A stretch of DNA of 64,000 nt from Escherichia coli. GTDB taxonomy: Bacteria; Pseudomonadota; Gammaproteobacteria; Enterobacterales; Enterobacteriaceae. Shown piece after piece: positions 8,120-32,152 of the stretch (the stretch's first letter is position 1; every line of letters starts with the position of its first letter). The DNA lies in the NCBI RefSeq assembly GCF_044647545.1, contig NZ_CP172818.1; one strand, 5' to 3'. Position numbers and translations under genes: made by a program. The notes under the pieces were generated by a model. It saw only the letters and a list, made by a program, of their open reading frames with translations. It was not told the origin of the DNA and did no database searches.

Positions 8120-8120
8120 A

Positions 8121-9677: not shown

Positions 9678-12312
9678 TTGCATATTCCTTAGCCCAGCGG
9701 GGCAGTGATAATGTCTTAATAGCTGGCCATTCATCGGTATTCAGGCAGTCAGACAGGGTTCGCAGATTGCGGTGATATTCCTGTTGACCTGCCAGTTTTG
9801 CTTCTTCGCCCATCATGAAAATTTCAACCGGATAACGTCCGCATTCAATAGTTGTGCTGGCAACCAGAAAAACGAAAGTTGGCTGCACTCCAAACTGTGC
9901 TTCATAACCGTCACTGTAGAATGCATCCTGAACGTGATAGCGGTAGTCGTAATAAGCGGTTTTGAATCGTTGAATATCCGCCGTAGTTTTCACGTCCATG
10001 ATCCAGTGAAATTCAGGGATAATTTTGTCCGGACGGCACCGACACAAAATTCCTGTTTCAGGATCTTCCCAGTAAATTGATGATTCAGCGTGTCCGGCGC
10101 TTTCAACAAGCCATTGCCCCAGCGGCAAAGCCATAACGCTTTGATACATGAGTTCAATTTTCCGGCCTTCTTCCGCAGTGATAACCGTTTTTCCTGTGCT
10201 TGCGCATTCCATCAGAAACGCTTTCTCTTCTTCTTTTCCGGCGTTTGTACGGCGGTTAAATTCAGGTGCTACGATAAAGCGGTTACTGAATTCTTCCGGT
10301 TCAAGTACCCGGCAGTGGAAAGCAGTTCCTAAATCGAGCGTTTTTGTCTTTGTGGTGTCCACGGGGGCATTTTTACGCCACAAATATAGTGCCGGAGTAT
10401 CAGCAATGTCATCGAGCTGAGACTTACTGATACCGGGACCCGCGTGGTAATTCTCATTCGAAATTCCGTAATAAATACCTGGCTCTATGTCTTCTACGAT
10501 TAAGGGATCTGACGCCTCGCCAGTTTCACTATCGCTGGCATGATGCTGATTGCTGCCAGTGTTCTCCTTGTGCTGATGCGCAGTGCCTTCCATTTCCTCC
10601 AGATCATTTTTCTGAACTTCAGGCTGATTCTCTCCATCGAATATTTCCTGGTATGTTGCGTCACCCATCACCGCACCACAATCAGGGCAGTTGCCGCCAC
10701 CGCTCTGACCGCAGGCGGTGCAGATCTTTTCCGGTTCCTGTTGCACTACTGGTTCAGGTTGTTTCGTTTCTGGCTCGTTTTGTTGCGTATTTGGGCTGTT
10801 TTGTTCCGCTTTCTGGTCGTTCTGTTCCGTTTCTTGCTGGTTCTGGTTCACAGAATCGCGGGTCTGGATCCCCTTAATCCATTTCGGATCATTCGGGTCG
10901 CTAATCCCTTCAACAAATTCACCACGTGATACTGCAAGCAGTTCATCGTCATCGACAGGATTTTTTGATGGAATGTTTTTCCGGGCTTCATGGAGTTCTG
11001 CCCGCAGTTCCTGATATTTCGCATCAACAGAATTTACCTGTGACTGAGCATCCAGCGGCTGCGTGTCCTGATGATGTTCAGTTGCGTCCGGTTCCATTGT
11101 TTCAGCCTCTCCCTGTTCAACTGCCGTTGTTCCAGATGGTTGCGGTTTTTCTTCATCATCCTGTTTTCCTTCTTCTGTTACTCGCTGCGGCATCGGGGCA
11201 GAGGAGCGACCGCAGGCAATATCCACGATTTCCGGATCAGGGTTGGCATGATCGGTTTCAGTCAGTACTTTGTTCAGATATTCAGTGACGTGCGCGGGGA
11301 TGACCTCGATCCCAATTGGTGCTTCTTTTACGGACGCAACCACGATGGCGCGGGAATAATCCAGCCCGCCAGGCATGGTGATGAATTTGTCGCGGAAAAC
11401 AGAAAAGGGCGGTTTATTTTCAGCGATAATTTCCTCAATGCGTTTAGCGTGTGCCGGATGAAGGTTATAGATGTCCAGATCCATTGAACGGGCCAGTACG
11501 CCAGTGGCTACGTCGCGCGCCAGTGACGTCAGATCGTGTACGAAACCTTCGCCGCGATCGGTGAGGTTTCCGCCGCCAGCATTAGCACCGGAAGCCGTGC
11601 GAGTGATGTGTGAAACACGATTACCCTTCATCCACTCTTTTGTCAGCAGTCCTCGATCGGTGTAGTCAGCGTTCAGGTATGCTTCGAAAAAAGCAGTTAT
11701 CAGTCCCAGGTTTGAATTACCAGGATTAGGGAAAACTTTGTCAGTGTCACGAACCAGTTTGTGGAGTTCGCGAATTTCCAGCGGGTCGAGCAGGCTGGTT
11801 TTGTGGGAAACAGCCAGGGCAGTAACAGCCGGTAGTTCTTCAGCCCGAGCAATGTGTAATGCCTGGAGTCCGTCGCGTGAAACGTGCGTTACCGGTTTTT
11901 CGCTGCCGTGTTGAGCAAGCCAACGAATGGGCAGTTCCTGGCCAGAAATTGGGAGTAGCATATTCTCCTCAATCTCAGTCATGTCTTCGCCGTTGACGTT
12001 GGTATTGCCTTGATAGTGAGCGTTGTCTGGTGCTGCTCCCGGTTTTAGTTCCCATGTCATGGAGTCTTTGCTGAGTTGATAGCGTTCACTCCAGGTAAAA
12101 TCGATCTCACCTTCAGCGGGCAGGTCATTAACGACAGGAAAATTCGTGGCAACAGCTTTAAAATAGCTGCTCAGTTTTTTACCTGACTTAACGATCAGGT
12201 AGTCCAGAGTGGCACAGGTCGATTCAAAATCGTTGCTTGCCCACAGGACGACGTCAGGTTCACCGGATGATTTTTTCGCTTTCCGTAACAGGAAGAGTGG
12301 TTTTGTGCTCAT
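9670..12312 (-). CDS. recE: Exonuclease VIII RecE
   Basis: 880-aa ORF ending ...[11 protein letters not shown]; low-complexity acidic/Gln-rich middle region; overlaps recT start. Confidence 0.9.
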
Positions 12313-12413
12313 TGTTTTTTAACCTCAACTCAGATTAAAATTCGTTTTGTTCAGTGAATGATCTTGCCGGATACACACTGTTCATAGCCTGCGCCATACG
12401 CAGGCTATTTCTT

Positions 12414-12689
12414 TCAGATTTCACCTTTTAATTTCATTGCAATTAGAGTTGCCAGAAATTCGGCTTTTTTTTCTGCGGGCAGATTCTTTCCGATATGCAC
12501 CAGGCACATTTTTTTGACACCTTCATCAAGTGTTTTTACGTTGCCTGATGGACCATCGATATCAACCACAGTGAATGGGGTTTCTTTATTTTCTGTTTTA
12601 ATTACGTAGCCAATGCGCTTTCCTTCCAGATTCACCTCGTGAACAATGTCATCGGTAGTTACAACAGTGGCTTCATAATTGGTAATCAT
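12414..12689 (-). CDS. racC: Rac prophage protein RacC
   Basis: 91-aa product (MITNYEATVV...) within ORF 12414..12737. Confidence 0.8.
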   Translation of the reverse strand: MITNYEATVVTTDDIVHEVNLEGKRIGYVIKTENKETPFTVVDIDGPSGNVKTLDEGVKKMCLVHIGKNLPAEKKAEFLATLIAMKLKGEI

Positions 12690-12763
12690 GTTTTTCTCCT
12701 TAATTAAGGTTGAGCGAATACCTGCCATTTCTGGCATAAATTCAGTTTCGAATAGTCAATTAA

Positions 12764-12934
12764 TTAAAGTTCATGTGCCATCTGGTCTTTTTCGGCACAA
12801 GCTTCACTGCAATATTTTCTCGGTTCGTCTTTTGATAAAATCCCGTGCATGAAGTGAAGCATTCTTTCAATAGCTTTGCTTTCTTCAACGTCTTTTTTGC
12901 AAAGGTGGTAAGCACATTTTATTTTCTTAGTCAT
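12764..12934 (-). CDS. ydaE: Small Cys-rich zinc-ribbon-like protein (56 aa)
   Basis: Hand translation [56 protein letters not shown]; start overlaps kilR stop (TGATGA); not in ORF track (<60 aa). Confidence 0.7.
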   Translation of the reverse strand: MTKKIKCAYHLCKKDVEESKAIERMLHFMHGILSKDEPRKYCSEACAEKDQMAHEL

Positions 12935-13155
12935 CACCATGACTCCGCCTTTACAGGTAAACCATCACGACCGAGGAAGACTTTAATCATGCGGTCAGTA
13001 ATGAATGTTTTTGTGGTCAGGTTACGAATATATAGTTTTCGCTTTTTAATATTGTTTGCCGAGGCAATATATGTCCGGCCTTCATGAAGAACATAATCGC
13101 CAGGAGTCACACACTGACGTGGTATTTCATCAGTTCCGAAGTGATGTGCAATCAT
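12934..13155 (-). CDS. kilR: Cell division inhibitor KilR (FtsZ inhibitor)
   Basis: 73-aa product ([14 protein letters not shown]...) within ORF 12934..13167. Confidence 0.85.
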
Positions 13156-13596
13156 AATTATCTCCATTTTTACAAATGAACTTTGTTGATGCGGTGTCTG
13201 GTGCCTCCAGGTGACTGCAACCAGTTAACAATTACAGTCGGCTTTCCCACCCAAACCAATAAGGACTAACATGACTTTTAACTGTGCCACGTGCGCTTAG
13301 CCGCATTCACCGCATCACAAAATTCACTTTAAAAAGGGCGGACATCAGCCGAACTTCAAGAAAAAAACTGATGCCGCCAGGACTACACACAGCAATGTCG
13401 TTATTTACAACCGGAGGCGCACTCCCACCATTTAAATTTAACAGACAAGACCGACTCTTTATGGATATCGGAAATGCGCCTTCGTGTTGTGCCCGGTTTT
13501 ATTTCACCACCTCCGGGCTTCGGTGGTCTCGGCTATACCCCTACAGCGAGAGCTTGTGTTAACATTTCAATACCCTTACAGTTGAGAGTTATTGAT

Positions 13597-14085
13597 ATGT
13601 TGGATGTATTTACTCCATTGTTGAAACTTTTTGCTAACGAGCCACTCGAAAGACTTATGTATACGATTATCATTTTTGGTCTCACTCTCTGGCTGATACC
13701 GAAAGAGTTTACTGTCGCATTCAATGCTTATACTGAAATACCTTGGCTCTTTCAGATTATCGTTTTTGCCTTTTCTTTCGTGGTCGCCATTTCCTTCTCA
13801 AGATTGCGAGCACATATTCAAAAGCATTATTCATTACTACCAGAGCAACGAGTATTGCTTCGTTTATCTGAGAAAGAAATCGCTGTATTTAAAGATTTCC
13901 TTAAAACAGGAAATCTTATTATCACTTCTCCTTGCCGTAACCCGGTTATGAAAAAATTAGAACGGAAGGGCATCATTCAACATCAGAGTGATAGCGCAAA
14001 CTGTTCTTATTATCTCGTCACCGAAAAATACTCCCATTTTATGAAGTTATTCTGGAACAGCAGGAGTAGACGTTTTAATCGTTAG
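13597..14085 (+). CDS. sieB: Superinfection exclusion protein SieB
   Basis: 162-aa membrane protein from internal ATG (MLDVFTPLLK...) of ORF 13474..14085. Confidence 0.85.
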   Translation: MLDVFTPLLKLFANEPLERLMYTIIIFGLTLWLIPKEFTVAFNAYTEIPWLFQIIVFAFSFVVAISFSRLRAHIQKHYSLLPEQRVLLRLSEKEIAVFKDFLKTGNLIITSPCRNPVMKKLERKGIIQHQSDSANCSYYLVTEKYSHFMKLFWNSRSRRFNR

Positions 14086-14237
14086 CTTACTGTGTGCTTC
14101 TCCAACCATCGGCGCGCACCAGTTTCGGTTTTAAATGTTTTGCTTTTGGTATACGTCATGGCAGTGAACGTTCCATCCTGGTTGGGGAACACGCCGCACA
14201 CCAGGGATTCGTTGTTGCCGAGGTCGATTTTTTGCAT
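14082..14237 (-). CDS. ydaF: Small prophage protein (51 aa)
   Basis: Hand translation MQKIDLGNNESLVCGVFPNQDGTFTAMTYTKSKTFKTETGARRWLEKHTVS; stop overlaps sieB stop convergently. Confidence 0.55.
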   Translation of the reverse strand: MQKIDLGNNESLVCGVFPNQDGTFTAMTYTKSKTFKTETGARRWLEKHTVS

Positions 14238-14247
14238 TTTGCGAATC

Positions 14248-14382
14248 TCACATCTTGTTGCTACGTATAGCGACTTCTGCCTGCCAGAGATCCCAGTCGT
14301 TGCTGCGTAAAGCCTGCACAGCCTGGTTGTAAGTGATACCGCAACAATCCATCAAATACTGAACTACTTCGTAATGCACCAT
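14248..14382 (-). CDS. ydaG: Small prophage protein (44 aa)
   Basis: Hand translation MVHYEVVQYLMDCCGITYNQAVQALRSNDWDLWQAEVAIRSNKM. Confidence 0.55.
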   Translation of the reverse strand: MVHYEVVQYLMDCCGITYNQAVQALRSNDWDLWQAEVAIRSNKM

Positions 14383-14572
14383 CTTATCTCTCCCCTTAAC
14401 GCCGGGTGGCGGAACTAACTGCTGCACTGCAAAATTTGAATCCCGCCGTCATGTTCATACGCCTCGGGCTGGCTACTTAACCCCTTACCACTGCCTGGTA
14501 ACTCGAAGTATTGCCCGGCGTTCTGTGGGGCGGGGTGGGTGGTATGCTGGAACTATAGGTAATGCCTAATTG

Positions 14573-14596
14573 ATTGTCAATAGGCTATGCCTAATG
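14573..14596. promoter_or_regulatory. Operator-like 24-bp element distal to racR, inverted copy of 15219..15242
   Basis: attgtcaataggctatgcctaatg; 23/24 identical to reverse complement of 15219..15242; surrounded by extra GCCTAAT motifs. Confidence 0.4.
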
Positions 14597-14690
14597 TTTT
14601 GAGCGTAACCTAATAGGTGATGGCGACAGCAGAAAGTGATGGGGGGGTTAAATAACGGAATCCAGGAGTTTTCCGTCAGACCATATAAGT

Positions 14691-15167
14691 TTAAGTTCCA
14701 GTTTTTGTGATGTTCTGGCTTTTCCGTTCAGATTCAAGAGCTTTCAGATACTTACCCACTTTCATTTCCATCGCTGCTATGTAGGCGCGAACATCGTGGT
14801 CAACCCAATCTGGTTCTGTAGCATTTCCAGATAACAGGAAAGCTACAATCGCTCTTATTTCATCAGAGGCTGCTTGATAAAGGTTGTTTATATCTAAAAG
14901 TTCACTTTTTGTATCTGAATTGGTGGGGGTTGGTATGGGGTATTCGTTAAGCCCCCAATGCTCTGGACCAACAACATCAGAAAAGAAACGCCATAATTCT
15001 GGAAGTTTATCTTTACTTATAGAGCCTTTCTTAATCCAGTCATAAATTGATGGTGGTTGGACTTTAAAGTGGCGTGCGACCTCCGCCTTTGATTTGACGG
15101 ATCCCGATGCGATTTTTTTGTTAATGGCCTGCTCTATCGCTCGGCCTAAGTCTTTACCACTAAGCAT
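14691..15167 (-). CDS. racR: Prophage repressor RacR (CI-like)
   Basis: 158-aa ORF with N-terminal HTH-like region; divergent from ydaS. Confidence 0.9.
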   Translation of the reverse strand: MLSGKDLGRAIEQAINKKIASGSVKSKAEVARHFKVQPPSIYDWIKKGSISKDKLPELWRFFSDVVGPEHWGLNEYPIPTPTNSDTKSELLDINNLYQAASDEIRAIVAFLLSGNATEPDWVDHDVRAYIAAMEMKVGKYLKALESERKSQNITKTGT

Positions 15168-15218
15168 TGCTTAATATTCTCCTATGCGCATTACATTAGG
15201 CAATCCCTACCCTTACTG

Positions 15219-15242
15219 CATTAGGCACAGCCTATTGACAAT
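15219..15242. promoter_or_regulatory. Operator-like element in racR-ydaS divergent promoter region
   Basis: cattaggcacagcctattgacaat plus nearby palindrome ttaggcgtcgcctaa (15247..15261). Confidence 0.45.
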
Positions 15243-15290
15243 TGCGTTAGGCGTCGCCTAATATTTCTGTGTGTTTTTGGAGTTCATTCG

Positions 15291-15587
15291 ATGAAAAAAG
15301 AGAACTATTCATTCAAGCAAGCTTGTGCTGTTGTCGGTGGGCAATCAGCAATGGCTAGGCTTTTAGGTGTATCACCTCCAAGCGTAAATCAATGGATCAA
15401 AGGGGTACGTCAATTGCCTGCCGAGAGATGTCCAGCAATTGAACGTGCAACAAGAGGTGAGGTTCTGTGCGAAGAACTTCGTCCTGATATTGACTGGTCA
15501 TATTTACGACGTTCGGCATGTTGTTCGCAGAATATGTCAGTGAAGCAACTAAATGACAGTAACAAATCCTCATTTGATCATACCTGA
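15291..15587 (+). CDS. ydaS: Cro-like HTH protein YdaS
   Basis: 98 aa; HTH (QACAVVGGQSAMARLLGVSPPSVNQW). Confidence 0.88.
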   Translation: MKKENYSFKQACAVVGGQSAMARLLGVSPPSVNQWIKGVRQLPAERCPAIERATRGEVLCEELRPDIDWSYLRRSACCSQNMSVKQLNDSNKSSFDHT

Positions 15588-15609
15588 AACATCAAGAGGC
15601 AAATGATTC

Positions 15610-16032
15610 ATGAAAATCAAGCATGAGCACATCGAATCAGTGTTGTTTGCCCTAGCAGCCGAAAAAGGGCAGGCATGGGTAGCCAATGCAATTACTGAAG
15701 AATATCTGCGCCAGGGGGGCGGCGAATTGCCCCTGGTTCCAGGCAAGGACTGGAACAATCAGCAGAATATCTATCACCGTTGGTTGAAAGGTGAAACGAA
15801 AACGCAAAGAGAAAAAATTCAGAAGCTGATCCCAGCAATTCTGGCAATCCTTCCGCGCGAGCTGCGTCACCGACTCTGCATCTTCGATACCCTGGAACGC
15901 CGTGCATTACTGGCGGCGCAGGAAGCGTTAAGTACGGCAATTGATGCGCATGATGATGCAGTCCAAGCCGTTTACCGGAAAGCGCATTTCAGCGGCGGCG
16001 GTTCTTCCGACGATTCTGTCATTGTTCATTAA
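15610..16032 (+). CDS. ydaT: Rac prophage protein YdaT
   Basis: 140-aa ORF immediately downstream of ydaS. Confidence 0.88.
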   Translation: MKIKHEHIESVLFALAAEKGQAWVANAITEEYLRQGGGELPLVPGKDWNNQQNIYHRWLKGETKTQREKIQKLIPAILAILPRELRHRLCIFDTLERRALLAAQEALSTAIDAHDDAVQAVYRKAHFSGGGSSDDSVIVH

Positions 16033-16044
16033 GCAAAAGTTTCC

Positions 16045-16902
16045 ATGCTGTTTGTGCTTATTCTAAGCCACCGGGCAGCATCATACGGGGCAATTATGGC
16101 CGCATTACCATACATGCAACTGTACATAGCTGATTACCTGGCTGACACCATGCATTTGTCAGCAGAGGAGCATGGTGCGTATTTGTTGCTGATGTTCAAT
16201 TACTGGCAAACAGGAAAGCCAATACCTAAAAACAGGCTGGCAAAAATTGCCCGTCTGACTAACGAGCGATGGGCTGATGTTGAACCATCCTTGCAGGAGT
16301 TTTTTTGCGATAACGGCGAGGAATGGGTGCATCTTCGGATTGAGGAAGATCTGGCATCAGTCAGGGAAAAATTAACCAAAAAATCAGCCGCAGGAAAAGC
16401 ATCTGTTCAGGCCAGAAGAAGCAGAAAGGAAGCAGATGTTCAAACAAAACAAGAGAGAAATTTAACAGGTGTTCAAACAGATGTTGAAGTGGTGTTTGAA
16501 CATGATGTCAACACAAAGGCAACTAATAAAGATACAGATAAAGATCTAAAAACAGATCCCCCCCTAAATCCCCCCCGGGGGAATCGAGGTGTCAAAAAGT
16601 TTGACCCTCTGGATATTACTTTGCCGAACTGGATTTCTGTCTCGCTTTGGCGTGAGTGGGTTGAATTTCGCCAGGCATTGCGAAAACCGATTCGAACGGA
16701 GCAGGGCGCTAACGGGGCGATACGGGAGCTGGAAAAATTCCGCCAGCAGGGTTTTTCACCTGAGCAGGTGATTCGACACAGCATCGCCAATGAATACCAG
16801 GGCTTGTTCGCGCCGAAAGGTGTTCGACCTGAGACGTTACTCCGACAGGTTAACACCGTCTCGTTACCGGATAGTGCGATCCCGCCAGGCTTCAGGGGGT
16901 AA
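16045..16902 (+). CDS. ydaU: Replication initiation protein (lambda O-like role), YdaU
   Basis: 285 aa; internal iteron-like repeats and AT-rich segment in mid-gene. Confidence 0.8.
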   Translation: MLFVLILSHRAASYGAIMAALPYMQLYIADYLADTMHLSAEEHGAYLLLMFNYWQTGKPIPKNRLAKIARLTNERWADVEPSLQEFFCDNGEEWVHLRIEEDLASVREKLTKKSAAGKASVQARRSRKEADVQTKQERNLTGVQTDVEVVFEHDVNTKATNKDTDKDLKTDPPLNPPRGNRGVKKFDPLDITLPNWISVSLWREWVEFRQALRKPIRTEQGANGAIRELEKFRQQGFSPEQVIRHSIANEYQGLFAPKGVRPETLLRQVNTVSLPDSAIPPGFRG

Positions 16903-17677: not shown

Positions 17678-18199
17678 ATGGAGACTGTTTTTGACGCACT
17701 GAAAGCAATGGGAAAAGCCACATCCATAGAACTTGCTGCGCGACTTGATATCAGTCGTGAAGAAGTGCTGAACGAACTATGGGAACTGAAAAAGGCTGGT
17801 TTTGTTGATAAAAGCGCGTACACCTGGCGTGTGGCTGATAACAATGTTCAGCAGGAACAGCCAGCGCAGGCAGAACTGCCGGAAGAAATCACCACAGCAA
17901 CAGTAGCGAAAATCTCAGAGTGCGATTTAACCGCGACGATTGAACAACGAGGACCACAAACGGCTGATGAGCTGGCTACATTGTTTGGTACCACATCACG
18001 CAAAGTGGCTTCAACGCTGGCAATGGCAATCAGCAAAGGTCGTCTGATTCGCGTAAATCAGGGCGGTAAATTTCGTTACTGCATACCGGGCGATAATTTA
18101 CCAGCAGAGCCGAAAGCAGCATCGGTATCTCCGCTCTGGTTATCTGCATCATCGTCTGCCTGTCATGGGCTGTTAATCATTACCGTGATAACGCCATGA
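17678..18199 (+). CDS. ydaW: Putative winged-helix DNA-binding protein YdaW (possibly remnant)
   Basis: ATG with gggag SD at 17678; 3' end overlaps Rz-like frame. Confidence 0.5.
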
Positions 18200-18570
18200 C
18201 CTACAAAGAGCAGCGCGATAAAAAAGTCAGTGAGCTGAAGCAGGCGACTGCCACCATTACTGACATGCAGCAGCGCCAGCGTACTGCTGATGCACTTGAT
18301 GCTAAATACACGAAGGAGTTAGCTGATGCGAAAGCTGAAAATGATGCTCTGCGTGATGATGTTGCCGCTGGTCGTCGTCGGTTGCACATCAAAGCAGTCT
18401 GTCAGTCAGTGCGTGAAGCCACCACCGCCTCCGGCGTGGATAATGCAGCCTCCCCCCGACTGGCAGACACCGCTGAACGGGATTATTTCACCCTCCGGGA
18501 ACGACTGGTAATGATGCAGGCCCAACTTGAAGGTGCTCAGCAATACATAACCGAGCAGTGTTTAAAGTAA
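18100..18570 (+). pseudogene. rzpR: Rz-like i-spanin remnant (no ATG at the lambda-Rz-equivalent N-terminus)
   Basis: Frame encoding ...[36 protein letters not shown]... resembles lambda Rz; ORF track lists only 18196..18570. Confidence 0.65.
18326..18511 (+). CDS. rzoR: Rz1-like o-spanin lipoprotein, embedded in rzpR in +1 frame
   Basis: 61 aa; lipobox LVVVGC; proline-rich ([15 protein letters not shown]). Confidence 0.7.
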
Positions 18571-18707
18571 AATCTTAACTACAATATGATTCATTTTGAT
18601 GATTGTTTCATAAGGAACAGTGAAGTAAGATCTAAGAGGAGTTAAATTTTATACAGTATAATCATAATATTGCAGCAAGGTGGTTATAATTGAAAGAATA
18701 TTTAGAT

Positions 18708-20165
18708 ATGAATACATCTCATGTAAGAGTTGTTACTCATATGTGTGGGTTCCTGGTTTGGCTCTATAGTCTTTCAATGTTGCCACCAATGGTTGTAGCA
18801 TTGTTTTATAAAGAAAAAAGCCTGTTTGTTTTCTTTATAACTTTCGTTATATTTTTTTGCATTGGTGGCGGAGCGTGGTATACAACTAAGAAATCTGGCA
18901 TTCAATTACGTACCCGTGATGGGTTTATTATAATTGTAATGTTTTGGATTTTGTTTTCTGTTATTAGTGCATTCCCTTTATGGATTGACTCAGAACTTAA
19001 TTTAACGTTCATTGATGCTCTGTTTGAAGGGGTTTCTGGAATAACAACAACAGGAGCAACTGTAATTGATGATGTTAGTTCATTACCTCGGGCATATTTG
19101 TACTATCGGTCACAGTTAAATTTTATAGGTGGTTTAGGAGTTATTGTTCTGGCGGTTGCTGTATTGCCATTATTGGGTATTGGTGGTGCAAAGCTTTATC
19201 AGTCAGAAATGCCGGGGCCATTTAAGGATGACAAACTCACTCCCCGCCTGGCCGATACGTCACGGACACTGTGGATAACTTATTCTTTATTAGGTATTGC
19301 TTGTATTGTCTGTTATAGACTTGCAGGAATGCCTTTGTTTGATGCTATTTGTCACGGGATTTCCACAGTTTCGCTTGGTGGTTTCTCAACTCATAGCGAG
19401 AGTATCGGATATTTTAATAACTATTTGGTTGAGCTGGTGGCTGGTTCTTTTTCCCTGCTATCGGCTTTCAACTTCACTCTTTGGTATATTGTTATTAGCA
19501 GGAAAACGATAAAACCTTTAATCAGAGATATTGAACTTCGTTTCTTTCTGTTAATAGCCTTAGGGGTGATCATTGTTACCTCTTTCCAGGTCTGGCATAT
19601 AGGTATGTATGACTTGCATGGAAGTTTTATTCATTCGTTTTTTCTTGCCAGCTCCATGCTCACTGATAATGGTTTAGCTACGCAGGATTATGCAAGTTGG
19701 CCCACGCACACGATAGTGTTTTTGCTGTTGTCAAGTTTCTTTGGGGGATGTATAGGTTCAACTTGTGGTGGAATTAAGTCACTTCGATTTCTTATACTTT
19801 TCAAACAAAGCAAACACGAGATAAATCAGCTTTCTCATCCCAGAGCGTTGTTGAGTGTAAATGTAGGAGGGAAGATAGTTACAGATCGTGTAATGAGGTC
19901 TGTATGGAGTTTCTTTTTTCTTTATACTCTCTTCACGGTGTTTTTTATACTGGTGTTAAATGGTATGGGATATGATTTTCTTACATCATTTGCAACAGTG
20001 GCTGCATGTATTAATAATATGGGATTAGGTTTTGGGGCTACTGCATCGTCATTCGGAGTGCTTAATGACATTGCAAAATGCTTAATGTGCATAGCTATGA
20101 TTCTTGGTCGCCTTGAAATTTATCCTGTTATTATATTGTTTTCAGGTTTTTTTTGGCGCTCCTAA
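18708..20165 (+). CDS. trkG: Potassium uptake protein TrkG (TrkH paralog)
   Basis: 485 aa from internal ATG (MNTSHVRV); multi-pass membrane protein; AT-rich. Confidence 0.9.
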   Translation: MNTSHVRVVTHMCGFLVWLYSLSMLPPMVVALFYKEKSLFVFFITFVIFFCIGGGAWYTTKKSGIQLRTRDGFIIIVMFWILFSVISAFPLWIDSELNLTFIDALFEGVSGITTTGATVIDDVSSLPRAYLYYRSQLNFIGGLGVIVLAVAVLPLLGIGGAKLYQSEMPGPFKDDKLTPRLADTSRTLWITYSLLGIACIVCYRLAGMPLFDAICHGISTVSLGGFSTHSESIGYFNNYLVELVAGSFSLLSAFNFTLWYIVISRKTIKPLIRDIELRFFLLIALGVIIVTSFQVWHIGMYDLHGSFIHSFFLASSMLTDNGLATQDYASWPTHTIVFLLLSSFFGGCIGSTCGGIKSLRFLILFKQSKHEINQLSHPRALLSVNVGGKIVTDRVMRSVWSFFFLYTLFTVFFILVLNGMGYDFLTSFATVAACINNMGLGFGATASSFGVLNDIAKCLMCIAMILGRLEIYPVIILFSGFFWRS

Positions 20166-20302
20166 TATATGGCTGATTTATAATTGTGAGTTTAATATTA
20201 TGTTGACTCACTCATTGATCCAATACCTAACTTTACCAGCAACACCTCCGTCCCCAGTAGCACTGGCTGCTGGGGTGCGTTTTATTCATAAAGCAAGGCT
20301 GT

Positions 20303-20566
20303 ATGAGCGAGAAATTAAAGATAGTCTATCGCCCATTACAAGAATTGTCACCGTATGCGCACAACGCCAGGACGCACAGTACTGAGCAGGTGGCACAACT
20401 GGTAGAAAGTATTAAGCAATTCGGCTGGACTAATCCGGTGCTGATTGACGAAAAGGGCGAAATTATTGCGGGTCACGGTCGTGTTATGGCGGCTGAAATG
20501 CTCAAAATGGATTCTGTTCCGGTCATTGTTCTGTCTGGCCTGACGGATGAGCAGAAGCAGCGATAA
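20303..20566 (+). CDS. ynaK: ParB-like nuclease-domain fragment protein YnaK
   Basis: 87 aa with ParB N-terminal-like motif (GHGRVMAA). Confidence 0.75.
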   Translation: MSEKLKIVYRPLQELSPYAHNARTHSTEQVAQLVESIKQFGWTNPVLIDEKGEIIAGHGRVMAAEMLKMDSVPVIVLSGLTDEQKQR

Positions 20567-20906
20567 CGATCAGTATCGCTCCCGTAATGCATTAATCCGT
20601 CGCCACATTGAGAAAATGGATGCCAGTTTGCACGTCGGAACGAAGGAGTTTGATATTTCAAAGGTTTCCGAGGTGGATTCTGTTGATGATTTACTCATTG
20701 ATAATGCCGCTCGTTATCTGCTGAAAGACTGGAAAGGGGTTGGTGAACTGGTTAATGGTGTTGAGGTTGCACTGGAATATACGGCAGAACGAGGGATCGC
20801 GCTGCTTAAGCAGAATCCAGAGTTGTACTGGCAGATCCTTGCAGAAGCAGCCAGCATCGCCCAGGGTAAAGAGCAGCAGAAGCAGGATACGATAAAAAAG
20901 CCATAG
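20547..20906 (+). pseudogene. ydaY: Prophage gene remnant YdaY
   Basis: 119-aa ORF overlapping ynaK end; no recognisable complete domain. Confidence 0.5.
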
Positions 20907-20980
20907 CTGCCCAGCGGTGGTTATCGGAGTTCGGGGGAGAAAGGGGGGAAAAGGCAAGATGGAAGCGAGAAAAACTCAGG

Positions 20981-21214
20981 TTGCCACCGATACCGGAACC
21001 AGAAATAGACCCGGTGCTTAAGGAGTTGTTGTACGCCTATTCGGTAATATCCCGTGCCCGACGTTATGCTGGAATGGCTGGGGTGCCTTTGCCTTTATCT
21101 CTGACAGAGATAAATGAATATTTAGCCACTCATCCGGTATTGATTGAGCGCGATGAATTTGAAGCAGTGATCTTTGCACTGGATGACCAGTATTTTCAGG
21201 AGCAGTGTGTGTAG
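20981..21214 (+). CDS. Phage-related small ORF, possible tail-assembly fragment (uncertain)
   Basis: 77-aa ORF immediately upstream of tape-measure fragment. Confidence 0.3.
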   Translation: MPPIPEPEIDPVLKELLYAYSVISRARRYAGMAGVPLPLSLTEINEYLATHPVLIERDEFEAVIFALDDQYFQEQCV

Positions 21215-21379
21215 TTGTTAATTACGTACACTCTGTTACAGAGATGTGATGGTGTCTTTAATTAAATCGATGATGCTCCTGGAGAAAAGCATTGCGTGGC
21301 CTCGTAATCGCTATATCTACTATTATGTCGCCTGAAACCCACTTCGCGGTGGGTTTTTTGTTGTCAGGAGTTTTAATAA

Positions 21380-22408
21380 ATGGCAGAGCAAACCTCGCGT
21401 CTCGCAATAATTATTGATAGCACTGGAGCGAAAAATAATGCTGACAATCTGACCTCCTCATTAGTCAAAATGACGCAGGCTGGGGAAACTGCTGCAAATA
21501 GCGCAGGGAAAGTGACTAAGGCAACAGAAGATGAGAAGAACGCGCTCGCAAAATTAAAAGCAGCTATTGATCCAGTTGGTGCCGCAATTGATACTGTCGG
21601 TCGACGCTATTCTGAATTAAAGAAATTTTTCGATAAAGGGCTTATTGATAAAGAAGAATATGAATTTCTTGTCCGTAAACTTAATGAAACCACAGAGGAA
21701 TTGAGCGGGGTTGCGCAAGCGCAGAGAGAAGCCGAGAAGGCCGGAAAACTTGCTGCCGCTCAGCAGGAAGCGCAGGCTCAGGCCTTTCAAAGAATGCTGG
21801 ACAAGATCGACCCTCTGGCTGCGGCGCTAAGAAATCTTGAACAACAGCATGATGAACTTAATGCTGCGTTTGCATCCGGGAAAATAAATGGTTCTCAGTT
21901 TGAGAATTATAGCCGAAAAATACAGGAAACACGGCGAGAGCTTACCGGAGAGGCTCAGGCAGAGCGAGAAGCAGCAAAAGCGCATGATGAACAGGTTGTT
22001 GCTTTGCAACGTCTGATTGCTCAACTTGATCCTGTCGGAACTGCTTTTAATCGTCTGGTAGAACAACAGAAACAGCTCAATGAAGCAAAAGCTAAGGGGA
22101 TGCTTTCTCCTGAAATGTATGAGGAGCTTTCTGGAAAACTTCGTGCTATGCGGAGTGAGCTTGAGGTTACTCAATCACAATTAAGCAAAACCGGAATGTC
22201 GGCAAAACAAACGGCTTTTGCTATGCGCATGTTGCCTGCACAAATGACGGATATTGTTGTTGGGTTGTCCACTGGTCAGTCGCCATTTATGGTGTTAATG
22301 CAGCAGGGCGGCCATTCAGCTATGCAGGAGACAAGAATCGCCAGCTTACCCGTTACAGCGATACCCGCTGGCATGAAGATTCAGTGCGTAACCGCTGGTT
22401 CAGCATGA
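21380..22408 (+). pseudogene. tmpR: Tail tape-measure protein, N-terminal fragment
   Basis: 342-aa coiled-coil-rich ORF typical of tape-measure N-termini; far too short for a full TMP. Confidence 0.7.
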
Positions 22409-22524
22409 TGGCGGGGCCATCTGTACGCGTGAATGAATGGTTCAGTGCTTATGCGATGGCGGGTGTGGCTTACAGCCGTGTTTCGACGTTCTCCGGGGAT
22501 TATCTCCGCGTAACTGACAACAAG
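22407..22524 (+). pseudogene. lomR: Lom-family outer membrane protein, internal fragment upstream of IS5
   Basis: Frame MAGPSVRVNEWFSAYAMAGVAYSRVSTFSGDYLRVTDNK runs into IS5 left end. Confidence 0.5.
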
Positions 22525-23720
<1,196 letters not shown>

Positions 23721-23910
23721 CAAGGGGAAAACGCACGATGTGCTGACCGGAAGTGATGACGATCGCCACAGCAACACGTCTCTGGCGTGGGGAGCTGGCG
23801 TGCAGTTTAACCCGACCGAATCCGTGGCCATTGACATTGCTTATGAAGGCTCCGGCAGTGGCGACTGGCGCACTGACGGTTTCATCGTGGGTGTCGGTTA
23901 TAAATTCTGA
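23721..23910 (+). pseudogene. lomR: Lom-family outer membrane protein, C-terminal fragment
   Basis: Ends with OMP beta-barrel signature ...GFIVGVGYKF; resumes after IS5. Confidence 0.7.
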
Positions 23911-23974
23911 TTAGCCAGGTAACACAGTGTTATGACAGCCCGCCGGTTCAGGCGGGCTTTTTTGTGGAGTGGAT

Positions 23975-26900
23975 ATGGCAGCAGTAAAAATCTCAGGTGT
24001 GCTGAAAGATGGTGCGGGAAAACCAATACAGAACTGCACTATTCAACTGAGGGCAAAGCGTAACAGCACCACGGTACTGGTGAACACGGTGGCCTCTGAA
24101 AATCCGGATGAAGCCGGGCGTTACAGCATGGATGTTGAGTATGGCCAGTACAGCGTCACCCTGCTGGTTGAAGGTTTTCCGCCTTCACATGCCGGAACCA
24201 TTACCGTCTATGAAGGTTCCAGACCAGGTACGCTGAATGATTTTCTCGGTGCCATGACGGAAGATGATGTCATGCCGGAGGCATTGCGTCGTTTTGAGGC
24301 AATGGTGGAAGAAGCGGCACGCAACGCGTCCGCGGTGGCACAGAACACGGCAGCCGCGAAGAAGTCAGCCAGTGATGCCAGCACATCAGCCCGTGAGGCG
24401 GCAACCCATGCGGCTGATGCTGCGGACTCAGCACGCGCAGCCAGCACGTCAGCCGGACAGGCCGCGTCGTCGGCTCAGTCAGCGTCTTCCAGCGCAGGAA
24501 CGGCATCAACAAAGGCCACTGAAGCATCAAAAAGTGCTGCCGCTGCAGAGTCCTCAAAAAGCGCGGCGGCCACCAGTGCCGGTGCGGCGAAAACGTCAGA
24601 AACGAATGCTTCAGCGTCACTACAATCAGCAGCCACATCTGCATCCACCGCGACCACGAAGGCATCAGAAGCTGCGACCTCGGCCCGGGATGCGGCGGCC
24701 TCAAAAGAAGCGGCAAAATCATCAGAAACGAACGCATCATCAAGCGCCAGTAGTGCAGCTTCCTCGGCAACGGCGGCAGGAAATTCCGCGAAGGCGGCAA
24801 AAACGTCCGAGACGAACGCCAGGTCTTCTGAAACGGCAGCGGGACAGAGCGCCTCGGCTGCGGCAGGCTCAAAAACAGCGGCTGCGTCGTCTGCCAGTGC
24901 AGCGTCAACAAGTGCCGGGCAGGCCTCAGCCAGTGCCACCGCCGCCGGAAAATCGGCAGAAAGCGCCGCATCGTCTGCTTCAACAGCCACAACGAAGGCT
25001 GGCGAAGCCACTGAACAGGCCAGCGCAGCAGCGAGGTCTGCTTCCGCAGCGAAGACATCCGAAACGAACGCGAAAGCGTCGGAAACAAGCGCAGAATCCT
25101 CAAAAACGGCTGCCGCATCGTCAGCCAGTTCGGCGGCGTCATCGGCATCATCGGCGTCTGCTTCAAAAGATGAGGCGACCAGACAAGCGTCAGCAGCGAA
25201 GAGCAGCGCCACGACGGCATCCACGAAGGCGACAGAGGCTGCTGGCAGTGCGACGGCGGCAGCTCAGAGCAAAAGTACGGCGGAATCCGCGGCAACGCGC
25301 GCCGAGACAGCAGCTAAACGGGCAGAGGATATTGCATCCGCCGTGGCGCTTGAGGATGCAAGTACGACGAAAAAGGGGATAGTACAGCTCAGCAGTGCGA
25401 CCAACAGTACGTCTGAAACGCTGGCGGCAACGCCAAAGGCAGTAAAATCAGCCTATGACAATGCAGAGAAACGTCTGCAGAAAGACCAGAACGGCGCTGA
25501 TATACCCGATAAGGGATGCTTCCTGAACAACATTAACGCGGTCAGTAAAACAGACTTTGCTGATAAGCGTGGTATGCGTTATGTGCGGGTTAACGCTCCT
25601 GCAGGTGCAACATCTGGAAAATATTACCCTGTTGTTGTTATGCGTTCTGCTGGCTCAGTAAGCGAACTGGCATCAAGAGTCATTATCACCACGGCAACGC
25701 GAACCGCAGGCGATCCGATGAATAACTGCGAGTTTAACGGATTTGTTATGCCTGGTGGCTGGACTGACAGGGGGCGTTATGCTTATGGCATGTTCTGGCA
25801 ATATCAAAACAATGAACGAGCCATTCACTCAATAATGATGAGTAATAAGGGCGATGATTTGCGCTCTGTGTTCTATGTTGATGGCGCTGCTTTCCCTGTT
25901 TTTGCGTTTATTGAAGATGGCCTGTCAATATCCGCACCTGGTGCTGATCTCGTTGTTAATGATACGACCTATAAGTTTGGGGCAACAAATCCGGCGACTG
26001 AATGTATCGCGGCGGACGTTATCCTTGATTTTAAGAGTGGGCGTGGTTTTTATGAGTCTCATTCGTTAATCGTTAACGATAACTTGTCGTGCAAAAAACT
26101 TTTTGCCACAGACGAAATTGTAGCGCGTGGTGGTAATCAGATTCGAATGATAGGTGGGGAGTATGGTGCATTATGGCGTAATGATGGCGCTAAAACTTAC
26201 CTGCTGCTTACCAATCAAGGTGATGTTTATGGTGGCTGGAATACATTAAGACCGTTTGCTATTGATAACGCAACCGGCGAACTGGTTATTGGAACCAAAC
26301 TGTCCGCAAGTCTGAACGGTAATGCATTAACAGCAACAAAGCTGCAAACGCCAAGACGGGTTTCTGGTGTTGAGTTTGATGGTTCCAAAGATATTACTTT
26401 AACCGCCGCGCATGTGGCTGCTTTTGCCAGAAGGGCAACGGATACATATGCCGATGCGGATGGTGGCGTTCCATGGAATGCCGAATCTGGCGCTTACAAT
26501 GTCACCCGCTCTGGCGACAGCTATATTCTGGTTAACTTCTATACCGGAGTCGGAAGTTGCCGGACCCTGCAGATGAAGGCGCATTACAGAAATGGTGGTC
26601 TGTTCTACCGTTCTTCAAGAGACGGTTATGGTTTTGAGGAAGACTGGGCAGAAGTTTATACCTCGAAAAATCTTCCACCAGAAAGCTACCCAGTCGGCGC
26701 ACCAATCCCGTGGCCATCAGATACGCCACCTGCAGGTTATGCAATCATGCAGGGGCAGACGTTTGATAAGGCAGCATATCCGAAACTGGCTATTGCCTAT
26801 CCTTCTGGTGTTATTCCAGATATGCGCGGCTGGACAATCAAGGGCAAACCCGCCAGTGGTCGGGCCGTATTGTCTCAGGAACAGGATGGCATTAAATCGC

Positions 26901-27340
26901 ACACCCACAGTGCCAGCGCATCCAGTACGGATTTGGGTACGAAAACCACATCGTCGTTTGATTACGGTACTAAATCAACGAATAACACAGGTGCACATAC
27001 CCACAATGTATCTGGTACTGCAAATAGTGCTGGCGCACATACTCATACCGTTCCATTAAGGAGACCAAACAGTGGCGGTATGAATTTCGACTGGCTGGAT
27101 GGTTCATCAAGTGGCACGGTGGTGGGGAATGGAACTGTGCCTTCTTCTGGCGCACATACCCACTCAGTATCAGGTACCGCTACAAGTGCTGGGGCACATG
27201 CACACACTGTTGGTATTGGCGCTCATACGCACTCTGTTAAGATTGGTTCACATGGACACACCATCACCGTTAACGCTGCTGGTAACGCGGAAAACACCGT
27301 TAAAAACATCGCATTTAATTATATTGTGAGGCTTGCATAA
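23975..27340 (+). CDS. stfR: Side tail fiber protein
   Basis: ~1121 aa; Ala/Ser/Thr-rich repeats in the middle, HxH repeats near the C-terminus. Confidence 0.9.
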
Positions 27341-27915
27341 TGGCATTCAGAATGAGTGAACAATCACGTACCGTAAAAATTTATAACCTGCTGGCCGGAA
27401 CTAATGAGTTTATTGGTGAAGGTGACGCATATATTCCACCTCATACAGGGCTGCCAGCTAATTCTACAGATATCGCCCCACCGGAAATTCCTGCTGGCTT
27501 TGTGGCAGTTTTTAACAGTGAAAATGAATCGTGGAATATTGTTGAAGACCATCGTGGTAAAACGGTCTATGACGTGGCGTCGGGGGACGCATTGTTTATT
27601 TCTGAACTCGGACCGCTACCAGAGAATGTCACCTGGTTGTCGCCAGCAGGGGAGTATCAGAAGTGGGACGGCGTATCCTGGGTGAATGATGAGGAAGCAG
27701 AAAAACTGTTTCGGATACGGGAAGCGGAAGAAAGAAAAAGCAACCTGATGCAGGTAGCCAGTGAGCATATTGCGCCGCTTCAGGATGCTGCAGATCTGGA
27801 AATTGCAACGGAGGAAGAAACCCCGTTGCTGGAAGCATGGAAAAAGTATCGGGTATTGCTGAACCGTGTTGATACGTCAACTGCACAGGATATTGAATGG
27901 CCAGCACTGCCGTAG
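27340..27915 (+). CDS. tfaR: Tail fiber assembly protein
   Basis: 191-aa ORF start-overlapping stfR stop; Tfa-like. Confidence 0.85.
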
Positions 27916-28012
27916 GGTAAAACATATAAATTCTATAATTAGATGTATCTTTCCATTTACGGCAAGGAAGGGGGCTTGGAAGACGTAAAGCATCTCACAC
28001 CGAGATTATTTT

Positions 28013-29882: not shown

Positions 29883-29936
29883 TTACTTGTTCAGGTTGTA
29901 TTGTTCTTTCTTACTAATTTCTTGATTTTGCGACAT
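29883..29936 (-). pseudogene. ttcC: Remnant of displaced original ttcA 5' end
   Basis: ATG at ~29936 reads [17 protein letters not shown] then stop at the att repeat boundary. Confidence 0.5.
29887..29929. repeat. Prophage attachment-site core repeat, distal copy
   Basis: Identical 43 bp to 6788..6830. Confidence 0.75.
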
Positions 29937-30111
29937 TTAAAAGCGACTCAATTCGTTATATGGCATCAGAAGAGTATGCGTCATGCCGGAACGCCCAGCA
30001 TAAGAAATCTGATATAAAAACTGTGGCGTGTATGGTACGGATTAGAGGGGAAAATGTCAGCACATTTGCGAAATGAATCAAAAAGCCCGCAGCAATGTGC
30101 GGGCGTTAGTG

Positions 30112-30627
<516 letters not shown>

Positions 30628-30686
30628 TTAGATCAAAGGAGGAAGAATAAGCAGAAAAAGCCCGCCATAACAGCGGGCAGGAGGAT

Positions 30687-31820: not shown

Positions 31821-32047
31821 TGAATAAATCCTTTAGTTATTTTATTTGCCTTTTATCCCCATTTCGGGGAGTGAAAACATCCTAAAGGAGAAGTTCAGTT
31901 AGCCGATAAATATCATTTGTTACGCCTTAAGTAAAACCTTAATCAAATAATTCTACGGAAATGATAATAAGTTTGGTGAATATATTGTTGGCGACATATA
32001 CAAAATAAAAATTATACATTTAAATAGTGATGCGTTATTCTTCGCGG

Positions 32048-32152
32048 GTTATATGCCTTTATTGTCACAAAGATTATTTTCTGTTGGACCCTTGTTACTG
32101 TTTATCCAACAAATAATGAGACAAGCCCGAACAGTCGTCCGGGCTTTTTTTT
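32048..32152 (+). ncRNA. micC: MicC-like small regulatory RNA
   Basis: 5' gttatatgcctttattgtcaca matches recalled MicC seed; ends in hairpin cccgaacagtcgtccggg + T-run (32125..32150). Confidence 0.7.

Follow-up and report, generated by a model that had tools for sequence, protein, structure and literature searches.

The window, that is, the whole stretch of 64,000 nucleotides of Escherichia coli DNA analysed here, carries at positions 20303-22524 the ynaK-ydaY-ynaA-lomR' segment of the E. coli K-12 cryptic prophage Rac. The prophage spans positions 6831-29886, with flanks that match an empty-site genome; its integration in ttcA and its late gene order (trkG-ynaK-ydaY-ynaA-lomR'-IS5-'lomR-stfR), colinear with the K-12 annotation, identify it as Rac. 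K-12 is 100% identical to the window over positions 20166-22382, with the first difference at 22383, and the K-12 reference (NC_000913.3) carries the same features within 'cryptic prophage Rac'. The region is the known and already annotated remains of the Rac virion-gene block, marked by two deletions, an IS5 and four broken genes; Rac is a prophage long known to be defective, and these genes have already been flagged as prophage remnants. The features are as follows.

ynaK, 20303..20566, + strand: 87 aa, codons 1-85 of a stand-alone ParB/Srx gene (263 aa when intact) plus 2 codons.
ydaY, 20547..20906, + strand: 119-aa chimeric ORF, what is left of a tail assembly chaperone (lambda gpG analogue) after N-terminal truncation.
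Deletion junction J1, 20555/20556, no strand: 2-bp 'AA' microhomology, 11,562 bp removed relative to E275a.
Slippery heptamer A-AAA-AAG, 20894..20900, + strand: in phase with ydaY, two codons ahead of its stop.
Unannotated -1 frame ORF (lambda gpT analogue), 20900..21214, + strand: frame open from 20870.
Terminator-like hairpin with a T-run, 21334..21357, + strand: from a pattern scan only, in which sites were not above shuffle expectation.
ynaA (tmpR), 21380..22408, + strand: 342-aa ORF, 311 tape-measure codons plus 31 out-of-frame codons.
Deletion junction J2, 22314/22315 (22313..22315), no strand: 0-2 bp microhomology, 8,345 bp removed relative to E275a.
lom fragment 1, 22315..22524, + strand: Lom residues 69-138 of 199 (phrog_108, E = 6.6e-33).
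IS5, 22525..23720, - strand: 1196 bp with 16-bp terminal inverted repeats, IS5Y in the K-12 annotation.
lom fragment 2, 23721..23910, + strand: Lom residues 138-199 of 199 (Ail_Lom, E = 1e-30; phrog_108, 138-199/199).

As references, we used the intact Rac-like prophages at the ttcA/uspF locus of E. coli E275a (NZ_CP035865) and E. coli 042 (NC_017626), together with the GenBank records of phage vB_EcoS-673R7 and its relatives (ON4706xx). The full virion gene set is present in the same order in 042, E275a and the vB_EcoS-* records, and with intact Rac-like prophages at the same ttcA site for comparison, both deletion junctions can be placed to the base. Comparison by blastn, which takes up the synteny check suggested in an earlier sequence-only reading, shows that the window is colinear with the intact prophage of E275a except for two gaps, of 11,562 and 8,345 bp. 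Both junctions were mapped by three-way alignment of the window with the left and right parents. J1 joins codon 85 of the 263-aa ParB/Srx gene to codon 34 of the 149-aa tail chaperone gene, and the segment removed (positions 3096-14657 of the E275a locus, L004) carries the TAGT-like glycosyltransferase gene and the terminase, portal, capsid, connector and tail-tube genes. At J2, lom codon 69 follows codon 311 of the gene for the 1077-aa tape measure in a different reading frame, and the segment removed (L004 16416-24760) carries the tail tip genes M, L, K, I and J. Megablast matches break sharply at query 390/391 (J1) in hundreds of genomes, and database matches do so at query 414/415 (J2). 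The retained segments differ from the intact prophage by 1 mismatch in 1,760 bp; the deletions and IS5 are therefore the sole lesions. A separate deletion, affecting the early and lysis regions of the prophage, lies outside these segments at about 18126. All four elements that the sequence-only reading had named between 20303 and 22524 (the ParB-like fragment, ydaY, the tape-measure N-terminus and a lom piece) were recovered there, both by profile searches and in the NC_000913.3 annotation. Each of the four ORFs matches part of its family profile only, with E-values far beyond chance, whereas the intact orthologues cover the profiles fully and are spaced, in the intact Rac-like prophages, by ~20 kb of virion genes; the view that truncated remnants mark the loss of the head and most tail genes is borne out by these partial profiles and full-length relatives.

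In ynaK, residues 23-77 belong to ParB_N (PF02195; 31 bits vs. a gathering cut-off of 26.3), and the GxxR of box II is present, with AGHGRVMAA aligned to AGERRYRAA of Spo0J (PDB 1vz0); this alignment was made with the E275a orthologue, which is identical to ynaK over residues 1-85 (85/85 aa). Orthologues in the closest phage records are 97.7-98.8% identical. The phrog_620 profile matches ynaK with E = 2.7e-43 but only over positions 3-88/217, compared with 3-217/217 for the intact 263-aa orthologue, and because it falls short of full-length coverage, ynaK is a fragment. The ORF ends in the junction-derived codons Q and R, followed by a stop from chaperone-side DNA, and the stump has lost the last ParB_N helix (the 'YRLADN' stretch, which corresponds in the alignment to box III of Spo0J). 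The sequence-only reading had rightly seen a ParB N-terminal-like domain and nothing more in ynaK, but its label of structural gene is wrong.

For ydaY, which the same reading had listed among the remnants by name only, the identity can now be given as a tail assembly chaperone shortened at its N-terminus. Its first three codons, the ATG included, derive from ynaK-side (ParB) DNA, and residues 4-119 correspond to residues 34-149 of the 149-aa chaperone, of which residues 1-33 are lost. Homology to the chaperone family is clear from phrog_313 ('tail assembly chaperone'), which matches ydaY at positions 47-149/258 (E = 6.9e-37) and the intact 149-aa form at positions 15-149/258 (E = 4.9e-46), so that profile positions before 47 are absent from ydaY; among Pfam and NCBIfam, no model recognised the G part, and PHROGs alone did. 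In intact prophages the ORF starts further upstream, at an ATG after GAGG, and encodes 149-153 aa; phage GenBank records give the 153-aa form, and the N-terminus that ydaY lacks has conserved counterparts, of 50-65% identity, in Klebsiella and Erwinia phages. In 042, E275a, vB_EcoS-673R7 and Erwinia phage Gungnir39, the chaperone gene has the tail tube gene on one side and the tape measure gene on the other; in the window the tube gene is deleted. The ydaY C-terminus, the slippery site and the -1 partner ORF are intact. A Klebsiella phage homologue (65% protein identity) has the identical heptamer in the corresponding place, and the peptide of the overlapping -1 frame is conserved in Klebsiella and Erwinia phages. 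The predicted frameshift fusion of ydaY and the -1 ORF (222 aa, with the predicted junction peptide ...DTIKKAIAAQR...) is colinear with phrog_313 over positions 47-246/258, scoring 144 bits vs. 128 bits for ydaY alone. The T part alone matches phrog_1189 (E = 6e-36), and the Phage_TAC_18 match in the -1 ORF (E = 3e-4) is below the cut-off. The sequence downstream of the heptamer, examined for a structure that could stimulate frameshifting, folds no more stably than shuffles (z = 0.91). The truncated ydaY with its -1 ORF could conceivably still be a working A-AAA-AAG frameshift cassette, which, if so, would add an unlisted programmed-frameshift product to K-12.

The hairpin at 21334-21357 sits in the gap ahead of the tape-measure start; the promoter and terminator pattern scan gave a number of sites not above shuffle expectation, and an Rfam search of positions 18000-24500 at a permissive E-value returned two sub-threshold chance matches and nothing else. 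In ynaA, 311 codons of the 1077-aa tape measure gene, up to position 22312/22314, are followed by 31 codons that read lom DNA, and the tape-measure part is identical to the E275a protein in 311/311 residues. TMP_2 (PF06791) matches ynaA at positions 2-46/208 only (E = 4e-17), whereas the intact 1077-aa protein contains TMP_2 (2-208/208), TMP_4 and Tape_meas_lam_C; the 342-aa ORF is, as had been proposed, an N-terminal fragment. The description of lom as short pieces is equally accurate (residues 69-138 and 138-199 of 199). Fragment 1, labelled 'gene fragment 1 of lomR' in NC_000913.3, has neither a start codon nor a signal peptide, and fragment 2 lies outside 20303-22524, yet is part of the same wreck. 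No complete Ail/Lom barrel (PF06316, 199 positions plus signal peptide) is left, residues 1-68 being deleted and the rest split by IS5. Position 22524 is the final base ahead of the IS5 inverted repeat; the element has the size (about 1.2 kb), the terminal inverted repeats, the single transposase ORF (326 aa, 22672-23652) and the 4-bp target duplication (CAAG, at 22521-22524 and 23721-23724) of an IS5.

Taken together, these findings indicate that the region is almost certainly the decayed late (virion) operon of Rac, shaped by two separate illegitimate-recombination deletions and, presumably later, by IS5. No genome with J1 alone or J2 alone appeared among the matches listed, and the order of the events and their separation in time are thus presumed. 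The ancestor would have been a complete lambdoid prophage with lysis genes, trkG, the ParB/Srx gene, the TAGT-like gene, terminase, portal, P22-type capsid and connectors, followed in order by tail tube, a G/GT-type tail chaperone, tape measure, M-L-K-I-J, lom and stf. The J1 deletion (11.6 kb) has its ends within the ParB and chaperone genes and the J2 deletion (8.3 kb) within the tape-measure gene and lom; both probably arose by microhomology-level end joining or replication slippage, and IS5 would then have inserted into the lom stump. Each fusion has left an artefactual ORF, with ynaK taking its stop from chaperone DNA, ydaY its ATG from ParB DNA, and ynaA running on into lom. Because domains and frames are broken, the direction was probably loss in K-12 rather than gain elsewhere. 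In BL21, an independent and different deletion begins in the same ParB gene; decay at this locus is recurrent. Since terminase, portal, capsid, tail tube, tail tip and two thirds of the tape measure are gone, the remnants are presumably non-functional for virion assembly. Their persistence would reflect recency and their place between cargo (trkG; stfR/tfaR/pinR) rather than selection on the fragments.

Compatible with this deletion history, although improbable, is the alternative that the fragments persist by exaptation of one or more of them. Candidates would be the ParB_N stump, as a peptide with a nucleotide-binding or regulatory role, the product of the YdaY'/T' frameshift, and the Lom pieces. 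The same scar occurs in the window on a non-K-12 chromosomal background, ydaY transcripts are detectable, with RNA up in an rpoZ mutant (PMC5811629), and a preprint (10.1101/2021.11.15.468771) reports that the 3' lomR piece is transcribed and suffices, when assayed heterologously, for an inducer activity; it is because of these reports on ydaY and lomR that 'non-functional' is meant here for virion assembly only. The 5' lomR piece, however, was inactive according to the same preprint, lom fragment 1 is without a start codon and a signal peptide, as noted above, and the ynaK stump lacks the last ParB_N helix. Moreover, the fragments hardly differ from the genes of the intact prophage, so that there has been too little time for visible selection, and in BL21 ydaY, the tape-measure stump and lom are gone altogether and ynaK is cut elsewhere.

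A single deletion, as the sequence-only reading had supposed, or IS5-mediated adjacent deletions, would be another origin of the whole scar. IS elements are known to cause adjacent deletions, and IS5 is present in the region. J1, J2 and IS5 also co-occur in about the same 345 genomes (nearly equal counts of 350, 344 and 345). Against this, a colinear block of 1,760 bp (20555-22314: chaperone stump, T ORF and tape-measure N-terminus) survives between J1 and J2, and at least two breaks and joins are therefore needed. No IS5 end lies at either junction (the distance from J2 is 210 bp), so the deletions were not IS5-mediated, and the intact 4-bp target duplication of IS5 points to a simple insertion with no later adjacent deletion. 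With the target duplication intact and the junctions free of IS5, IS5-mediated deletion was rejected, and we regard this alternative as a whole as very unlikely; two deletions (11,562 and 8,345 bp) plus IS5, with the block kept between them, replace the single event.

It is highly improbable that ynaK began as the N-terminal part of a phage protein in which ParB is fused to a DNA methyltransferase, as had been suggested. Such fusions are frequent among phages (PMC12704722), the phrog_498 'DNA methyltransferase' N-terminus aligns with ynaK (E = 2e-29, positions 31-116/633), and the N-terminus of the Verrucomicrobia phage P8625 methylase is 55% identical to ynaK. The direct orthologues, however, are 263-aa stand-alone ParB/Srx proteins with full coverage of phrog_620, itself a stand-alone ParB-like family. 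In the 263-aa form ParB_N is the only Pfam domain and a methyltransferase domain is absent; its alignment with phrog_498 covers positions 31-171/633 only, which places it outside the fusions, and methyltransferase-fused relatives appear only at ~55% identity, in a distant phage. The next gene in E275a, deleted from the window, is a separate TAGT-family glycosyltransferase-like gene (PF20691, E = 6e-35; phrog_842, E = 1e-103), not a methyltransferase. On this Pfam content and phrog_620/phrog_498 coverage of the orthologue, a methyltransferase-fused direct ancestor was rejected. We give almost no credence to the idea that the ORFs are complete small-protein families (a mini-ParB, a 119-aa YdaY, a short tape-measure-like protein): RefSeq does treat ynaK and ydaY as ordinary CDSs and calls a 119-aa 'protein YdaY' even inside intact prophages, but the profile search that the sequence-only reading had proposed gives partial coverage throughout (ynaK 3-88/217, ydaY 47-149/258, TMP_2 2-46/208, Lom 69-138/199), intact prophages and phage records carry the longer ydaY with its conserved N-terminus, and the ydaY start codon and ynaK stop codon of K-12 were produced by J1 itself.

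The importance of the two-deletion history is slight beyond annotation hygiene. The gains are base-exact deletion junctions with a named intact reference prophage, and the recognition of 'YdaY' as a beheaded tail assembly chaperone; the 119-aa K-12 form has been spread by automated annotation to intact prophages, where the real gene encodes 149-153 aa and has a frameshift partner. As a further pointer, full-length YnaK belongs to a recently noticed class of phage ParB proteins whose genes stand beside those of DNA-modifying enzymes.

Comparison of the window with K-12 Rac (ynaK b1365, ydaY b1366, ynaA/tmpR b1368, lomR' b4570, IS5Y/insH5) shows that gene order, ORF lengths, lomR fragment boundaries and IS5 position are shared, whereas the window chromosome is non-K-12, with flanks 100% identical to an ST648 genome with an empty ttcA site, and scattered SNP patches distinguish its lom pieces, IS5 and stfR. 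The intact Rac-like prophages share the ttcA/uspF locus and the trkG cargo, with retained segments 98.9-99.9% identical; unlike the window, they lack IS5 and retain the 11.6 kb and 8.3 kb, which comprise the full ParB/Srx and TAGT-like genes, terminase, portal, P22-type capsid, tail tube, the full chaperone, the 1077-aa tape measure, M-L-K-I-J and an intact lom.

Phage orphan ParB/Srx proteins (ParB-CTPase fold) are encoded beside DNA-modifying enzymes (PMC12704722; PMC13229309), and ParB-dependent phage base-modifying enzymes have recently been described. Like these proteins, ynaK has the ParB_N fold and the GxxR box (AGHGR), and its intact relatives adjoin a DNA-modification-type enzyme just upstream of terminase; unlike them, the Rac lineage has no dioxygenase or methyltransferase partner, the partner being the TAGT-like gene. 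The closest ParB homologues elsewhere adjoin a Mom-family gene or are methylase-fused. The ynaK stump could conceivably, though we think it rather doubtful, be the relic of a two-gene DNA-modification module of Rac-like phages upstream of terminase. In such a module, and just as tentatively, the stand-alone ParB/Srx would target or activate the adjacent TAGT-family glycosyltransferase.

The lambda tail chaperone is made as gpG and, by a programmed -1 frameshift, as gpGT. As in lambda G/GT, the gene of the intact relatives is flanked by those for tail tube and tape measure, ends shortly after a slippery heptamer and is overlapped by a -1 ORF that is conserved as protein. The ydaY family (phrog_313) differs in that it is without detectable sequence similarity to lambda G, its heptamer is A-AAA-AAG (as in dnaX) rather than the G-GGA-AAG of lambda, and the chaperone of the window is without its first 33 residues.

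A scan of the window for open reading frames (ORFs) gave the following, together with an IS5-type transposase gene with Lom-like reading frames on both sides.

Reading frames from the ORF scan (window positions)
20303-20566: ynaK, 87 aa
20547-20906: ydaY, 119 aa
21380-22408: ynaA, a 342-aa ORF

In a megablast comparison with 5,426 complete E. coli genomes, the segment fell in the cryptic prophage Rac, annotated in the order trkG-ynaK-ydaY-ynaA-lomR'-IS5-'lomR-stfR. Window positions 20166-21379 were 100% identical to K-12 MG1655, and this identity extended over 20166-22382, with the earliest mismatch in the area at 22383. The feature is already known and annotated, and the literature describes Rac as defective, a fossil whose structural genes are disabled (PMC4632033, PMC11879457). 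The sequence-only reading had described 20303-22524 as a run of truncated structural-gene remnants, and its limits agree with the annotation: ynaK starts at 20303, and 'gene fragment 1 of lomR' ends at 22524, directly ahead of the IS5 inverted repeat. Its observation of truncated remnants was confirmed and its interpretation was largely right, except for the guess that ynaK derives from a ParB-methyltransferase. The present analysis adds the exact mapping of the junctions, the recognition that ydaY, with a -1 partner that lacks annotation, forms a G/GT-type chaperone cassette shorn of its N-terminal part, and the correction of the ParB-methyltransferase guess.

Database matches to window 20166-21379 fell into three classes (about 350 genomes at full length, many at query 390-1214 only, and others at 1-391 only), and the split at 390/391 marks a deletion junction at window 20555/20556 (J1). 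At the second junction (J2, window 22314/22315), the matches broke equally sharply, at query 414/415. Comparison by blastn with the prophage of E. coli E275a showed colinearity in four blocks.

Colinear blocks (window; E275a locus; identity)
18126-20556; 665-3095; 98.9%
20555-22314; 14656-16415; 99.94%
22315-22526; 24761-24972; 94.8%
23721 onward; 24967 onward; 93.1%

In three-way alignments, J1 joins ...GATGAGCAGAA to GCAGCGATAACG..., with 'AA' alone in common and 11,562 bp gone, and J2 joins ...GGCGGCCA to TTCAGCTATGC..., with 0-2 bases in common and 8,345 bp gone. IS5 (22525-23720, 1196 bp) has 16-bp inverted repeats and is flanked by a CAAG duplication, which indicates a simple insertion, so that IS5 caused neither deletion. 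What the alignments show is a pair of non-homologous junctions plus a simple IS insertion; the junctions would have been made by illegitimate recombination (microhomology-level end joining or slippage), and IS5 could have transposed before or after the deletions. The kept DNA differs from intact prophages by 1 mismatch in 1,760 bp; this near-identity indicates that the deletions are recent relative to sequence divergence, and it makes selection on the fragments unreadable from substitutions. A third junction lies at about 18126-18127, between a ydaW stump and an rzpR stump, where about 5.9 kb is absent relative to the prophage of E. coli 042; lost with it are nin-region genes, a Q-like antiterminator, two tRNAs, the genes for holin and lysozyme, and the beginning of Rz.

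At the same ttcA/uspF site, a Rac-like prophage that appears complete is present in strains 042 and E275a, and the phage GenBank records vB_EcoS-673R7 and relatives hold the same module.

Gene order in the intact prophages
Start: lysis genes, trkG, 263-aa ParB/Srx gene, 310-aa gene, 69-aa gene
Next: small and large terminase, portal, minor head protein, scaffold-like protein, P22-type capsid protein
Then: five small genes, tail terminator, tail tube
End: 'ydaY', 1077-aa tape measure gene, M, L, K, I, J, lom (199 aa), stf

In all Rac-like prophages examined, intact or decayed, trkG (18690-20165; 37.8% G+C vs. 46-56% in its prophage neighbours) is preceded by the lysis genes and followed by the ParB gene, and it is a conserved cargo gene in the late operon.

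Had the ORFs been complete members of small-protein families, the reading as remnants would fall; in profile searches, all four failed as complete. Although ynaK scored above the Pfam ParB_N cut-off (31 bits vs. 26.3), it spans only positions 3-88 of the 217 in phrog_620, vs. 3-217 for the 263-aa orthologue. On phrog_313 ('tail assembly chaperone'), ydaY covers 47-149 of 258 (E = 6.9e-37), and the intact protein begins at position 15. The 342-aa ORF spans just 2-46 of 208 in TMP_2, whereas the intact 1077-aa tape measure protein has TMP_2, TMP_4 and Tape_meas_lam_C all complete, and the lom pieces cover 69-138 and 138-199 of a 199-position profile. The ynaA frame consists of 311 tape-measure codons, all identical to E275a, and 31 out-of-frame codons through lom, and lom fragment 1 has neither start codon nor signal peptide.

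The first 85 codons of ynaK are those of the ParB gene and match E275a without a difference; DNA from the chaperone side supplies the final Q and R and the stop codon. The stump is missing the final helix of ParB_N. A ParB-methyltransferase origin is rejected for the Rac lineage, as the full-length orthologue stands alone: it is a ParB/Srx protein of 263 aa, in which a Pfam search found no second domain and whose box II region (AGHGRVMAA) is alignable with Spo0J. Directly downstream, with an 8-nt overlap, comes a glycosyltransferase-like gene of the TAGT (TET-associated glycosyltransferase) family (PF20691, E = 6e-35; phrog_842, E = 1e-103), with terminase after it.

ParB and TAGT-family pair, just upstream of terminase
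E275a locus, 2842-4558
042 locus, 8139-9855

No dioxygenase or methyltransferase was found among the annotated genes of the loci examined, and the pair may be an uncharacterised DNA-modification pair. The neighbour of distant YnaK-like ParB genes varies by phage: a helix-turn-helix protein adjoins them in Vibrio and Yersinia phages, and a methylase is fused to the ParB domain in a Verrucomicrobia phage. In Psychrobacter phage vB_PmaS_Y8A (3492-4749 of its locus), a YnaK-like ParB (58% identity) is followed by an overlapping Mom-family gene (PF25680, E = 2e-55) and then terminase, which is another ParB/DNA-modifier pairing. Orphan phage proteins of the ParB fold that are joined to a DNA-modifying enzyme, or have one as partner, have been described recently (PMC12704722, PMC13229309). 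The methyltransferase idea was therefore close as to function but mistaken about the architecture.

Two ORFs cross the ends of IS5. An 88-aa ATG-started ORF (23644-23910) ending with lom fragment 2 has its first ~25 codons inside the right end, and is probably the 'LomR B3' given as 86 aa in a preprint (10.1101/2021.11.15.468771) that reported inducer activity on a vibriophage reporter for the 3' lomR piece and none for the 5' piece (in 20303-22524). Numbered from the putative start, the residues A7-P8-D9, reported in that work as essential, would be IS5-derived, not Lom-derived. At the left end, an 82-aa ORF (22442-22690, minus strand) runs antisense into lom fragment 1; it is a 'hypothetical protein' in some RefSeq K-12 records and probably an annotation artefact. 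On either side of IS5, the window differs from K-12 by SNPs in dense patches (22383-22488, 23739-24500 and 26500-28000): lom fragment 1 has 10 differences within ~105 bp, fragment 2 has 5 and stfR has many, compared to only 5 differing sites in IS5 and none left of 22383. These patches suggest gene conversion, with other lambdoid lom/stf copies as the source, once IS5 was in place.

The Rac of BL21 carries an independent, larger deletion that removed ydaY, the tape-measure stump and lom; trkG, directly upstream, is kept in both this and the K-12-type deletion. The BL21 deletion (seen at 7138-7380 of its locus) starts at another point in ynaK (window-equivalent 20533) and joins that gene to tail-fibre-region genes. 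In the window, the flanks (1-6830 and 29887-41505) match, at 100% identity, an ST648 E. coli genome with an empty ttcA-uspF site, and the prophage between them (6831-29886) has the K-12-specific J1, J2 and IS5-in-lom lesions. The window therefore has a decayed, virion-less Rac in a non-K-12 background, one not represented among the 5,426 complete genomes, and this combination implies horizontal movement or recombination of a defective element.

The ydaY gene is listed as a pseudogene yet transcribed (PMC5811629). RefSeq gives 'protein YdaY' as 119 aa from GTG even in intact prophages (19993-20352 in the 042 locus, 14648-15007 in E275a), which appears to be the K-12 pseudogene length propagated. 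In the window, the ydaY ATG (20547) lies left of J1 within former ParB coding DNA, and residues 4-119 alone are chaperone, matching residues 34-149 of the intact protein. In intact prophages, the frame reaches an upstream ATG preceded by GAGG as ribosome-binding site (149 aa; 153 aa from an earlier ATG). Homologues in Klebsiella and Erwinia phages (50-65% identity) align from residue 1 and keep an N-terminal ...ERWF.P... block absent from K-12 YdaY; the Erwinia homologue carries the annotation 'tail assembly chaperone', with the tail tube gene on one side and the tape measure gene on the other.

Two codons ahead of the ydaY stop lies an in-phase A-AAA-AAG (20894-20900), identical in the Klebsiella phage; a search for a stabilising structure downstream of it found none. 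From 20870 to 21214 the -1 frame contains no stop, and this ORF has no annotation in NC_000913.3; its peptide (KKAIAAQRWLSEFGG...LPPIPEPEIDPV...) is kept in the Klebsiella and Erwinia phages, and alone it matches phrog_1189 (E = 6e-36), with Pfam Phage_TAC_18 below threshold. The predicted fusion is colinear with phrog_313 as far as 246 of 258, at 144 bits vs. 128 for ydaY alone. Together, ydaY and its -1 ORF have the arrangement of lambda G/GT, the tail chaperone and its -1 frameshift product.
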